DNA of 64,000 bases from the NCBI GenBank assembly GCA_951406725.2, contig CATOCA020000001.1:2852001-2916000 (forward strand). Direction: 5' to 3'. Numbering within the stretch: the first letter of the stretch is position 1; each line of letters starts with the position of its first letter. The translations under genes were made by a program, and so were the position numbers. Source of the DNA: Octopus vulgaris (taxonomy: Eukaryota). Shown in pieces: positions 1,763 to 33,148 of this stretch. The notes under the pieces are model-generated. The model saw only the letters and a list, made by a program, of their open reading frames with translations, did not search any database and was not told the DNA's origin.

Positions 1763-1788
1763 TCAGGTATTTCTGTTTATTTCGAAAC
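1763..1788 (-). CDS. Candidate terminal coding exon (G)FEINRNT*
   Basis: gttcattgtag acceptor; read in phase 1 it gives a short peptide and TGA; no independent support. Confidence 0.3.
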
Positions 1789-2077
1789 CTACAATGAACA
1801 GGTCATTTCACAGATGCTAAACTATAAATTTCACAGGGTAAAACATTAAAATTGACACCACTAAGTTGAGAATGCTACATCACAGAAAATTTCTGTCTCA
1901 CTATTGGCTAAAAATACACAGTTTTTTTTAAAGTTTTCATCAAATTTTTTCTCCACAAGTACATGGCTTCACAGGAATAAGCATGTAAACTACATCAATA
2001 TAACCGATTTTCAGATATTTGACTTCCTTTTAAGAGATGCAGATTTTATGAATGAAACAAACAAGATCTGATGTGGA

Positions 2078-2358
2078 TAAGTTTAGAAAAAGGTAACTCT
2101 TGAATTCAGATAGTCAACCAAGGCATGGGTGAGGGCAGTTGCTGAGGCCATCGCTTCTGCTTTCCTTTTCTAAAGTTCTTTACTGGCCTGTTGCTGTGGA
2201 AGGACCTTCAAGAAAAAAGGAAGGCAGAAGCAATGGCCTCAACAACTGCCCTCACCCATGTCTTGTTTGACTAACTGAATTCAGGAGTTACCTGTTTGTA
2301 AACTTATAAACATCTAATTATTGAAGTGGAAAAATGATCAGAAAAGCCATTTCTATTC
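2078..2358. mobile_element. Foldback/MITE-like element, left-truncated copy
   Basis: Long imperfect inverted arms (catgggtgagggcagttg / caactgccctcacccatg); near-identical to 3807-4088. Confidence 0.75.
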
Positions 2359-3272
2359 TTTTTTCTTCAAATATAATTATATATATCCACATATATGTAT
2401 TTAGAAACAAAAAATACTTAAATCCAGTCAGAGTCCATGTACTGAATATGTTCTTCATCCTCTTATTTACATATTTTTAAAAAGAAAAGTATTGCCTAAT
2501 GAATTTATTTGGTATGAATAAAAGGAAAAAGGAGTAATTTTGGTTAATATGACATTTCAAACTTAGACTTTGGAAAGAGGGTTCCTTAGTAAAGTGGCAC
2601 CCAAAATTCTATTCTACAAGAAAAATGCTAATGGTTATGTAAAAGTAGTACTTATTGAGAGGCTGAATGTACAAAATTTACTTCACTGGGATATAATCTC
2701 AGAATGTACTAACAGTAAATTTAATTCTGTCAATATTTAGTACAGTTTGTACTTTTTCCCTCACTTCAATATTTGGTGGTGATATTACCATTAAGAGAAG
2801 CCATTCACAAATATGTTTAGAGCAATAAGGGTTTTTCTGAGATTACATTCTTGTTAGAGTTATCCATAAGCAGGAGTGATTTTGGATACTGAAGAGGAAA
2901 AGCTGATCCCATTTACCTTTGGAAATCTGTTCCATTTTTTGTGTCTCATGTCTAAGCAAGTATCTACTGAATTCAATATTAGTTGTATACCAATTTGGGT
3001 TATTTGTTTAAATAAAACTTTAAAAATATATGCATATGAACTGCATTAATAAAGGTAAGATAAATAAAGGTGTAAAATATAAGTTACATATGAATGTTTG
3101 CAAGAAGTTCTTTGCATATGCAATGAAATTTTAACACCTTCAAAGTTTTAATTTCAATCATACATATATATTAAGCTGCATATTCTACCCAAAGAAAGAA
3201 TGAGCCAAACTATTTGCTAATCTTGCTCTAATGAAAATAATTTTTTTGTTAATAAATTGCTTATATACTTAC

Positions 3273-3314
3273 CAGCAGGTTTATTTGAAGCGTTAACGTA
3301 AGTACCATCCGTGC
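3273..3314 (-). CDS. 42-nt phase 1-1 micro-exon GTDGTYVNASNKPA
   Basis: tttcttaaag acceptor, CTG|gtaagt donor; older paralog of 8618-8659 that keeps YVN and KP despite divergence. Confidence 0.68.
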
Positions 3315-29223: not shown

Positions 29224-31373
29224 ATATATATATATATATATATATATATATATATATGTATGTATGCATGGATATATAGTTATGTCATCACTTCATCATT
29301 TAAAGTCTGTTTTCAATGCTTACATGCTTTGTTAGAAGCTGGTAAGCTAGAAGACTGTGCCAAGTTCAACTGTCTGTTCTGGCATGGCTTCTACAGCTGG
29401 ATGCTTTTCTTAATGCTCACCACTTTACACACTGTACTAGGTGCCTTTTATGTGACAGCAGCCCTGGTGAAATCACAAAGTATTTTACAAGACAAAAACC
29501 CTCAACAGAGGAGGGAGTAGTATTGAGGGAGGTAGTTTTGTGCCATGTGTGTATCTAATGGGAGACCACAAGAAGTTACATTATTAACCATGCATAGTTA
29601 GGAATCCACAGTTGGGTATGTCACAGAATATATACACATGACAAAACAAGAAAGTTTGTGTATAAACTATTTAATTCGTACCAGCTTACACATGTTTCAT
29701 AAACAAACAAAAACTATACAACTAAATTCTTTTTGGTATTGCTTCCAATTCTTTACATTCTGAGTTCTAATCCCACTGAAGTCAACTTGACTCATCCCCT
29801 CAATCCAAAAATTGTTGCATTTGTGCAAAATTTGATAGACATTATAACAACAACAACAACAACAACAATAATAATAATTATTATTAAGGTAGTGAGGTGA
29901 CAAAAATCATTAGTATGCTAGACAAAATGCTTTGCAGCATTTTCTTCATCTTTATGTTGTGTTAAAATTCTGTGAAGATTGACTGCCTTTGATCCTTAGA
30001 GGGAGGGGAGAAGGCTTGATAAAATAAGTATTAGTTGAACCCTGGGGTCGATATAATTGATTTATCCTCCCCCTAAATATTGCTGGCCTTATGTTTAAAT
30101 TTGAGACATTTAACCTTATTATTATAAGGGCATGAGCTGGCAGGATCATTGCTGTGTTGGACAAGAAGCTTTGTGGTATTTCTTCTGGCTCTACATTCTG
30201 AATTCAAATACCACTGAACTCAGCTTTGCCTTTCATCTTTTTGTTGTTTACACACCCATCTTCGTCTTTTGTTTTTTGTAAATTCTCACTATATATATAT
30301 ATATATATATATGTATGTGTGTGTGCGTGCGTGCATCTGTGTGTTTGTGTGTGTGTGCGTCTGTGTGTGTGTGTATGTGCGTGTGAATGAAGGCTACCAT
30401 TAGTTTCATTAAAAGAAAGTAGGAAAATATCCTACTGTCTTAACGAATCGTCAAGTCAATCAGGCGAATACCTTTAACATGAAACCAAACCAATGGTAGC
30501 CTTAACTCACAACTAAAGAAGTTATATATCCACCAATCTGGTGTTGAGCGCTCATTTTACCGGTCTACATTTATGCATATACGTATAAATATATATATAT
30601 ATACTTTATAATTAGGGTTCAGCAAAGATTTGCTTCACATACCGAAGTTTAAAAATAGCAGTAAAAAAATTCAAAATACGAATGAGAGTTCATCACCTTC
30701 CCCTGCCCATTAGCGTGTCGCCAAGTAAGATGCTTCAGGGAGAAACTGTAGTTTGTTATCAGGGAGAAAAATTCCATTATCAATAATAACAAAGGGTAAA
30801 ATTAATTAATTAAGAAGTAATCAGTAATTTTACCAAGCAGAATTCGGCATGAAAAATACCATTTCATTGTAAGCTTAATTAATACTTTAAAATTAGGGTT
30901 CAGCAAAGATTTGCTCACCACATACCGAAATTTAGAAATAGCAGTCAAAAAATCTTAGCTATTCCTTCTACATTAAAACTGTAGTGATTTTTATTGGCGC
31001 AGATGGTTGTGAATGTATCCGGTATCGAAGTACGATAAGCTGGAAAAGGTAATTCTTTAGTTCACGGTTAGCAACTGTGGTTTGGATATGTATGTGTGTG
31101 ACTTTATATATGAATATATATATATTCACTCACCCTCTCTCTCTTCTTCCCTCTCTCTCTCTCTCATCCTCTCTCTCGTTCTCTGTGTATATTCATACAC
31201 ACCCGCACTCATCTACTAAGGAAAGTTTGAAATTATCTTCATTTACTAAAACTTTCTGTGGTTGGACTGCCTTATGCGCTCGTGTGCTAAACAAAAGGTT
31301 GTACTCATGTAGTTACCTAACTGAGGGCTGACTTTCATCGCTCCAGTTTTCTTTCTTGTGTTGCAGAGTAAAC

Positions 31374-32379
31374 ATGGCTTGCAGTGTGCCCAAAGAAAAC
31401 TCAGAGATCAGTGACTGAATTTCCAAGACCGAAGGTGTTCCAGGGGCTGAAATTCATTGTAGGCCTTCAGCACAATACTAGGACAGCACTCTGGCCGCGT
31501 AGAAGTGACTTTGAGCGGATGGATAAGCTTTAAAACGGTTGGGCAAACGTGAAGCAGGAAGAGGGAGCAGGGTGCCCATCATCCTCCACCACTGACGTGA
31601 AGAATTTACAAACTTGCGTAATGGAGCCGTGTAAACCGTCGAGTGATCACCGACGGCGTGGTATGTTTTCTGCAAATTAGTCAGGGTTCTGCATACTAAA
31701 TCATCCACGACAAGCTTCCCTTTCTGAAAGTCTGTGCGAGATGGGTACCAAGAGAACTTATCAAAGCTCATAAATGCAATTCTGTGGAGATCTATCAATG
31801 CTTACGTGACTACTACAACGATGAAACCGAAGAGTTGTTTGGAGAAAATGGTCACAGGAGATGATACCCGGATATATCACTTTGAACCACAATCCAAACG
31901 GTAGAGTATGGAGAGAAATACCCGGAATCGCAAGCGAAAAGGAAATTCAAAACTCAACCTTCCGCCGAATAAAGGGTACACAGAATGGCTTATACCTAAA
32001 TATTACCCGGAAAAGTAGTTTATAGTGACAAGTTTAAGCTATTGTGAAATGCTGGCCAACAAAGTGTAACTAGAAATTTGCCCTAAACGCCGAGGTTTGT
32101 TGTCAAGGCAAGTGTTGAGGCCAATGAAAACTTTGGATTCGAGTTGCTGGAACCACCTGAATACCATGCACATCTCGGCCCTTCCGATAACCATCTCGTC
32201 GGACCGCTCAGTCTTCCTTTACGAGGTCATACATTTGTTATGGATTAAGAAGTCCAAGAGGCCGCGAAGAAATGGCTGTGCAGCCAATCGAAAACCTTCT
32301 TCTCCGACGGAATAAACAAGCTTGCAGAACACACTGGAGGAGGTGCATCGAATAACATGGAGTCTATGTGGGAAAATGA
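31374..32379 (+). mobile_element. Decayed mariner transposase
   Basis: EGVPGAEIH, VTGDDTRIYHFEPQSKR, GINKLAE..WRRCIE..GVYV motifs across frameshifts. Confidence 0.82.
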
Positions 32380-32759
32380 TGTAATTGTCTAACACCCTGA
32401 TTTTGTTTTAATACATTAGAGAAACAAAAGTGTGTGTAATATATTTATATGTATGTATATGTATGTGTCCATTTATATAAACACACACGCGCGCGCGTAT
32501 ATATTTATATATGTATACACAATGCACACACGCAGAGAATACAGCTATTGTTGCTGCCGTTGATGACGACGACGATTATGATGATGATAAGGAGGGGGAG
32601 GATAATGGCGATGACAACAGCGGTGTTGATATTTTTTGATGACGTCTATCGTAAAAGTGCTTGTGTTGTTGGGACTGTTGCCTGTGATTATCCCCATCAT
32701 GACAATATTGGCGATGCTTTTGATGGTACAATGGATAAAAAAAGACAAATCGCACTCAC

Positions 32760-33148
32760 TTTTGCCGGTGGTAAATTTCCAGGGATTCGCTCTCTTTCGT
32801 TTGATCACAAACTCCTTGACGCCATCTCTGGTATCTTTCTTGTATAAACAATAGAATACGAAGATGAAGATTCCTTGAAGGGTATTGCATACAAGAAAAA
32901 GGTACCGAAACACTGTTGCTGCTTCGCTAACAGCGAAGAATGCAAAGACCCATGTGAGTCCAAACAAAAACAACAAACCAACCAGGCCCAGAACACGTAC
33001 TATACTTCTTTTGCGATCAAACCTCTTGTTTCTTTGCGGTGATATGAGACGCCATGTCACGAGAGATATCAGGATAAAGTTGAAGATGAGAATTATCACC
33101 ACGGGAGTCAGGAAAGCAACATGGAAGGAAGGTTCTGATAACCAACAG
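32760..33148 (-). CDS. aGPCR TM5-TM7/helix-8 exon ending at a phase-1 donor
   Basis: ttctttgtag acceptor; [16 protein letters not shown]...[11 protein letters not shown]...[18 protein letters not shown]...KFTTGK then A|GTGAGT at 32759. Unspliced read-through reaches a stop at 32545 via low-complexity sequence. Confidence 0.9.

Follow-up and report, generated by a model that had tools for sequence, protein, structure and literature searches.

The stretch of Octopus vulgaris DNA analysed here (the window) comprises 64,000 nt, positions 2,852,001 to 2,916,000 of contig CATOCA020000001.1 in assembly GCA_951406725.2, given below as G000:C31:2852001-2916000, and holds on its minus strand part of a gene for a G protein-coupled receptor of the adhesion type (aGPCR), followed by a series of tyrosine-bearing micro-exons. 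The receptor belongs to the adhesion class by a Pfam 7tm_2 match to database model P0001 (E 6.6e-34) and by its seven hydrophobic segments. A G protein-coupled receptor proteolysis site (GPS; Pfam E 1.1e-10 on P0001), GAIN-region exons homologous to those of paralogs and leucine-rich repeat (LRR) domains are also present. Eleven more 5' exons lie outside the window, up to the window-equivalent position 110460; we take them to be signal, LRR, Cys-rich and SEA-like exons. The frame is open from 51825 via the GPS and the seven hydrophobic segments into the micro-exons. The tail that these encode is foreign to the GPCR and comes from an Octopus family of single-pass receptors of the immunoglobulin (Ig) superfamily.

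The initial annotation had proposed that the micro-exons are spliced to the GPCR through a phase-1 donor behind the last seven-transmembrane (7TM) exon. That donor, after 32760, is present as described, and a junction of the type 32760>21669 occurs in contigs of four out of four sequencing runs. The contigs of X2, X8, X5 and X13, from four studies, match the 7TM exon as far as the donor, and the 28-30 letters displayed beyond it are the same as window 21638/21640-21667, which places them in exon A or in the identical copy at 12715 (Table 1); the X8 contig extends 8 letters beyond exon A. Because three of them (X2, X5 and X8) are also spliced at their upstream end, to the exon ending at 36307, the contigs are cDNA-like; the RNA nature of the runs is presumed rather than on record, and contigs report presence, not proportion or level, with rare variants dropped. 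Within these four runs no contig reads through to the stop at 32545, an outcome that the initial annotation had named as refuting the link, none enters another next exon, and the native last exon of the aGPCR family is absent from the junction contigs. The junction-bearing runs date from 2015-2025 and carry two organism labels, the second on X8. Three junction contigs stop exactly 30 letters after the donor; the logic of contig building suggests that exon A has a second upstream partner. A contig of X10 has the same geometry with 28 loose letters, which are not displayed, and was excluded from the count. Two automated database models, P0001 and P0006, already contain the 7TM-tail join without comment, and P0001, which bears an Octopus vulgaris label, has a 100% match to the 7TM exon. 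Separately, the junction contig of X13 carries the paralog-type base at window 32973 and X10 shows both bases, reflecting either a polymorphism or paralogs merged in a contig.

The ancestry of the DNA changes within the intron behind the 7TM exon. Window positions 1-30243 are 99.1-99.6% identical to copies of the Ig-superfamily receptor gene at C28:8.0 Mb and C31:9.1 Mb, and 94-97% identical to a copy at C5:28.8 Mb; from 30234 upward it is aGPCR paralogs, at C31:1.80 and 2.54 Mb, that match the window, with 98-99.8% identity. The two parental alignments overlap by 10 bases without a gap, and 9 of these 10 bases are alike in both parents. The break falls, on the donor side, in the phase-1 intron preceding exon A and, on the GPCR side, 2.5 kb past the phase-1 donor and 1.15 kb short of the native last exon. 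Since both introns are of phase 1, the reading frame is kept across the fusion. Only this locus spans the junction (one of 40 scored matches), and the flanks of the junction are dispersed repeats (44 matches in 29 of 112 fetched loci; 10 in 10). Divergence of the fusion from its parents is ~0.2-0.8%, for example 6 mismatches in 2,901 bases and 13 in 4,201, with zero substitutions in exons A-C relative to the C31:9.1 Mb copy. Two unrelated parents, a defined junction and an in-frame spliced transcript across it are all found at this locus. We therefore regard it, with high confidence as far as the fusion and the first splice junction are concerned, as a real, spliced and very young chimera of an aGPCR and an Ig receptor. 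The junction would have arisen between two duplicated blocks, by template switching or by microhomology-mediated repair.

The donor family was traced with the pair of 60-nt and 42-nt exons, which gave 41 genome matches (57 candidates, 40 scored) clustered on C5, C28 and C31. All other places are more than 190 kb away from the 7TM-exon paralogs listed. A query with the tail retrieved 11 Octopus proteins, namely four with Ig domains, five without a Pfam domain and two models of the fusion locus itself. Across three Octopus species, the tail-related proteins comprise Ig-domain models (I-set, Ig_3, C2-set) and tail-only models; database protein searches did not find the donor tail family outside Octopus. 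Ig and transmembrane (TM) exons map upstream of the break in the C28 and C5 copies. The C5 copy runs from Ig exons through a TM exon, a 19-nt and a 17-nt exon and the tail micro-exons to a last exon that reads GYQ-stop; the 19-nt juxtamembrane exon ends in phase 2 and the 17-nt exon restores phase 1. This last exon was matched on C5 only (9 of 9 matches); at the fusion locus, homology with the C5 gene stops short of it, at C31:2843813. The initial annotation had allowed that the micro-exons might belong to a single-pass receptor; this holds for the parent copies and not for the present locus, where the link to the GPCR stands.

In six family proteins the tail tyrosines do not vary. Compared with the C5 copy, exons A-D carry 2 differences in 207 bases and exon E carries 4 in 41, while the flanking introns differ by 3-6%, so that the comparison gives at most a weak and mixed signal of constraint on the tail exons in the donor lineage. 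Three database isoforms of a donor-family gene in O. sinensis (P0009, P0010, P0013) differ by single 14-residue blocks, and it is only in such database models that exon skipping is seen. Profile matches P0023, P0025-P0029 and P0032 look by their domains like chance matches to repeats and were not used; P0030, P0031 and P0033 were left aside as well.

Several further observations concern this family as a whole. It occupies G000:C5:27.49-29.32 Mb, with copies on C28 (8.0 and 10.7 Mb) and C31 (6.6 and 9.1 Mb) and ten TM-exon matches, and its tails are built from 39-60-nt phase-1 micro-exons, with up to 29 tyrosines in database model P0019. The recent duplicates at C31:9.10-9.19 Mb, C28:7.98-8.05 Mb and C31:6.62-6.67 Mb are cut differently: the TM exon is missing from one, exon A from another and exons A-C from the third. 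In all three the 17-nt exon no longer has its donor site, and the last exon is absent.

Within the window, the seven minus-strand micro-exons of the initial annotation were all recovered with the AG...GTAAGT borders, lengths of 42 or 60 nt, stop-free phase 1 and tyrosines ascribed to them. A scan under fixed criteria gave nine matches on the minus strand of 1-30233, corresponding to six distinct peptides, one of them from a longer form of the exon at 3273. The plus strand of the same interval and positions 33200-64000 gave none, and 200 block-wise dinucleotide shuffles gave a mean of 0.09 and a maximum of 2. As 6556-15492 and 15618-25607 are tandem copies in the assembly, ~98.5-99% identical (10 mismatches in 3,680 aligned bases), the seven exons amount to only four distinct sequences. 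An eighth exon at 3551-3601 had been overlooked, and a further tail micro-exon lies outside the window at C31:2845893-2845934, ~6 kb beyond its end. The last exon initially proposed at 1763-1788 did not hold up: its acceptor scores -0.9, where ten others in the gene reach 1.7-8.1, and falls outside the set of 40 downstream acceptors scoring at least 2, and the site is intronic in the donor genes. The acceptor at 3601 scores -2.7. All acceptor scores are approximate.

The paralogs show what the GPCR looked like before the fusion. Their native last exon encodes 16 residues ending in ETNF and lies 1.4-9.5 kb downstream on the same strand in 13 of the 16 closest 7TM-exon paralogs (at least 169 bits; counted by hand), including two with 99.2-99.8% identity in the last 7TM exon. 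It was not found at the fusion locus. Ig-type tail exons were found in none of ten further paralogs within 20 kb, among them three without the short last exon. Hormone-receptor-like exons, present in the C31:2.56 Mb paralog, were found neither here nor in as much of the C31:1.77 Mb paralog as was fetched. The GPS site reads DRL-KS instead of HL-T/S in P0001, P0002, P0003 and P0016, which departs from the self-cleavage consensus, and from this sequence the GPS is predicted not to be self-cleaved. As DRL-KS is common to three paralogs, the loss of the cleavage site predates the fusion. Such losses are common and compatible with function (PMC3776922).

Other features of the aGPCR family were noted alongside. 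The window gene, P0002, P0003 and P0016 form a subclade without the His and Thr of the GPS; P0005 keeps HL-T, and P0004 has YL-T. The native-last-exon region is dispersed at ~19 places with 87-90% identity that do not lie directly behind a listed 7TM exon (for example C31:4868748, C31:3738786, C5:141944457 and C2:215343826), and is perhaps carried by a mobile element. The paralog L119-L120 (C31:9311301-9331300) has its last 7TM exon seemingly split by an insert of ~8.7 kb. In a close copy at G000:C30:15.43-15.48 Mb (L105-L109) the match to the window ends at the TM2 exon, and no later 7TM exon turned up in the stretch fetched. An intron of the GPCR holds three long consecutive open reading frames of 487, 306 and 391 aa (window 43946-47472, plus strand), also present in the C31:1.79 Mb paralog; with a YMDD motif, they look like a non-LTR (long terminal repeat) retrotransposon. 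A satellite of ~121 bp extends over at least 30 kb at G000:C31:2792001-2822448 (L013-L016), 30 kb past the low end of the window.

Table 1 Features of the chimeric locus, in window coordinates
Feature	Position	Strand	Comment
aGPCR ectodomain exon, start of GAIN region	62168..62396	-	tblastn of P0001/P0002/P0004/P0005
GAIN-region exon	61120..61290	-	one base short, frameshift as assembled; paralog alignment
GAIN-region exon	57069..57226	-	one base short in C run; paralog alignment
GAIN-region exon	51697..51825	-	open frame begins
GPS exon	51151..51300	-	DRL-KS at cleavage site
7TM exon (TM1)	50240..50361	-	
7TM exon (TM2)	40086..40206	-	
7TM exon (TM3)	38266..38410	-	
7TM exon (TM4)	36307..36379	-	spliced to 33148 in X2, X5, X8 contigs
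Last 7TM exon (TM5-7 + membrane-proximal tail)	32760..33148	-	phase-1 donor
Fusion junction, 10-nt microhomology	30234..30243	.	aGPCR last intron meets phase-1 intron of Ig-receptor gene
Segment from Ig-superfamily receptor gene family	1..30243	-	runs on beyond window
~9-kb tandem duplication, as assembled	6556..25607 (6556-15492 + 15618-25607)	.	doubles exons A-C; joint within repeat array
Tail micro-exon A, 42 nt	21628..21669	-	YATI; splice partner of 7TM exon (this copy or 12715 copy)
Tail micro-exon B, 60 nt	17971..18030	-	YAEA + YLEL; contained in database model P0001
Tail micro-exon C, 42 nt	17709..17750	-	ISYVNV (YxN + ITIM consensus)
Micro-exon A, second identical copy	12715..12756	-	
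Micro-exon B, second identical copy	8880..8939	-	
Micro-exon C, second identical copy	8618..8659	-	
Micro-exon D, 51 nt	3551..3601	-	YLEM; weak shifted acceptor; paralog of exon B; use uncertain
Micro-exon E, 42 nt	3273..3314	-	YVNA
Last exon of initial annotation, unsupported	1763..1788	-	poor acceptor; intronic in donor genes

With all eight window exons included, the chimeric tail would have at least 126 residues, 25 of them acidic, and 10 tyrosines, compared with 0-1 Tyr in the 40-42 residues of native aGPCR tails (n=5). It is probably disordered. Its motifs comprise three YxN, two ISYVNV (one a duplicate) and one YxxM, YLEM. We take YLEM to be a motif of the type bound by phosphatidylinositol 3-kinase (PI3K) p85, and the native ETNF to be a PDZ-type end. 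The motif assignments of the initial annotation agree with published consensus sequences: pY-x-N is the Grb2-SH2 ligand, matched by sequence at the three YxN sites, with YVNVS also occurring in LAT (PMC3694890), and ISYVNV fits the cytoplasmic immunoreceptor tyrosine-based inhibitory motif (ITIM) [I/L/V/S]xYxx[I/V/L] (PMC9546547). The likeness of the array to an immunoreceptor tail, also remarked in the initial annotation, has its origin in the Ig-superfamily receptor gene from which the array derives. In the 60+42 exon pair YLEL and YVNV lie eight residues apart. A relaxed immunoreceptor tyrosine-based activation motif (ITAM; V/M allowed) has 23 matches in nine family tails, 22 of them at spacing 8, counting copies that are not independent. 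The genome has 36 matches to the SH2 family.

These features suggest how the product might signal. Both parental tails are cytoplasmic, and the chimeric tail would keep this topology. The tyrosines in acidic context would be phosphorylated by cytoplasmic kinases, of the Src family or others, upon which the YxN sites would recruit Grb2, the YxxL/M-x8-YxNV pairs would recruit tandem-SH2 proteins of the SHP2 or Syk/Shark type, and YLEM would possibly dock PI3K p85. Because each half of a pair sits on its own symmetric exon, exon skipping would change the valency of the tail or split the motif pairs. The PDZ-type end would be lost with the fusion, on a receptor with a GPS predicted to stay uncleaved.

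By domain content, the receptor resembles the octopus-specific aGPCR expansion 'group 3' described by Ritschard et al. 2019, with a GPS, an adhesion-type 7TM domain, LRRs in some members (5 of 22; one other feature reported there is a member with a Death domain) and tandem lineage-specific copies, whereas group 3 has no Ig-receptor tail (PMC6408891). The main text of that paper has no occurrence of 'tyrosine', 'immunoglobulin', 'intracellular' or 'C-termin'. In the latrophilin LPHN2 the output of an aGPCR is likewise set by alternative cytoplasmic-tail exons, but these are the receptor's own and choose between G protein and arrestin, whereas the present tail bears tyrosine motifs and was acquired whole from a receptor of a different class (PMC12236479). 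OX1R, bradykinin B2, sst2 and CCK2 have functional ITIMs that recruit SHP2 (PMC8398691), and Y350 of beta2AR binds the Src SH2 domain (PMC8233884). In those GPCRs the sites number one or two and evolved in the receptor itself, in contrast to an imported array of ~10 Tyr on separate micro-exons. For the donor family, PECAM-1/CD31 (PMC2132561), Hydractinia Alr (PMC9546547) and oyster CgNCAM1-SHIP2 (PMC11841013) serve as models: they too are Ig-superfamily receptors whose tails carry tyrosine motifs, use alternative exons and have SH2 phosphatases as partners, a likeness of features with no homology claimed, and unlike the chimera all are single-pass. Drosophila 'tinkering loci' are also composite genes of duplicated fragments, put together amid repeats in regions with many recent duplicates, but concern another animal, whereas the present case is an intron-intron junction with 10-nt microhomology that swaps a tail between receptor classes (10.64898/2026.08.09.743762). 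In searches of the open-access literature we found no report of a GPCR with an Ig-receptor tail or of the donor family; in an aGPCR review of 2026 (PMC13197933) 'SH2' occurs 0 times in the first 300,000 of 412,533 characters. No further GPCR-tail fusion was found among database proteins, where word-based searches are weak evidence, or in the ten paralogs over 20 kb.

Taken together, these data favour a young chimeric gene whose product would likely be a seven-helix receptor that docks SH2 proteins in the manner of an immune receptor, a reading to which we give a probability of just over one half. Judged from sequence, the odds are about even that the fusion gives a receptor of full length whose docking tail works. 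Several findings weigh against it. Two GAIN-region exons are one base short. At 61120-61290 the window has A5 where the closest paralog has A6, all nine aligned paralogs being one base longer; at 57069-57226 it has C3 where another paralog has C4, a loss in common with the C31:1.78 Mb paralog, with the frame kept in that at C31:2.56 Mb. The first frameshift, if real, would stop translation within the exon, and if both are real there is no full-length receptor. The fused gene has neither parent's last exon, leaving the 3' end and stability of its message in doubt. Only the first tail junction, from the 7TM exon to exon A, was observed in contigs. The strict ITAM, Yxx[I/L]x(6-9)Yxx[L/I], has no match in nine tails. 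The nearest donor copies look decayed, having lost a splice donor, TM or tail exons. Finally, with a divergence of ~0.2-0.8% the fusion is too young to show selection.

It is possible, rather than probable, that the locus is an expressed by-product: a real spliced chimera thrown up by the turnover of segmental duplications that makes no useful protein. This would fit the two frameshifts as assembled and the missing last exon, the uniqueness of the junction in the assembly, and the truncated or broken state of sister duplicates of both parents; P0001, moreover, leaves out the three GAIN exons, and its end lies in a stretch of intron that looks derived from a retroelement. However, both frameshifts are one-base homopolymer losses, which are expected of long-read consensus errors, and like losses occur in paralogs at these or other runs. 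In one paralog a T run has undergone a similar loss, and relative to three paralogs several run lengths are shifted at the end of 61120-61290. In our judgement the frameshifts are probably assembly errors. The contigs also speak against a by-product, since all four runs show the fused and not the native junction, despite near-identical paralogs that keep the native exon, and the fused junction recurs over a decade of runs under both organism labels.

Were the frameshifts real, an internal start could still give a GPS-7TM-tail scaffold that docks SH2 proteins or signals constitutively without its LRR sensor. The frame open from 51825 to the tail permits this, as do contigs that cover the 7TM end only. 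We consider it improbable: no start site is seen, although contigs cannot show one, and apart from the frameshifts the 5' exons have an open frame and normal splice sites. That the tail is an old native part of the GPCR subfamily, or the locus an assembly mis-join, is very unlikely and largely refuted: the junction does lie between repeats and no DNA contig bridging 30234-30243 was found among the matches listed (29300-33340; X2, X8, X10, X15), but the closest paralogs end in the short exon, at other loci the tail exons follow Ig and TM exons, and independent spliced contigs repeat the join at exact exon borders, which is impossible from one faulty assembly.

The preferred reading of a young chimeric receptor matters because GPCRs and tyrosine-motif immunoreceptors usually separate in signalling logic, and the known overlaps amount to one or two sites per receptor. 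Here an entire multi-tyrosine tail was moved onto a GPCR in one step, with each parent still ~99% identical to its part of the chimera and the junction narrowed down to 10 bases. Parent and chimera differ only beyond the last helix, which offers a clean test of whether a tail swap rewires a receptor. The locus also points to an unstudied Octopus family of Ig receptors with micro-exon tails, and to a route by which new outputs can arise within the octopus aGPCR expansion. Should the product have no function, the locus would remain a finely resolved picture of how a gene is born by duplication, and of modest interest. More tentatively, and in a form we think unlikely to hold in every part, it may be a GPCR-immunoreceptor hybrid caught at birth: LRR-sensing, uncleaved, bearing in place of its PDZ-type end a multivalent phosphotyrosine array tunable by splicing, the main expressed of three near-identical copies, and converting one ligand event into signals through G proteins and through readers of the Grb2, SHP2 and Syk type. 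If this is true, Octopus receptor families would swap cytoplasmic outputs via shared phase-1 introns, a general path to new receptors.

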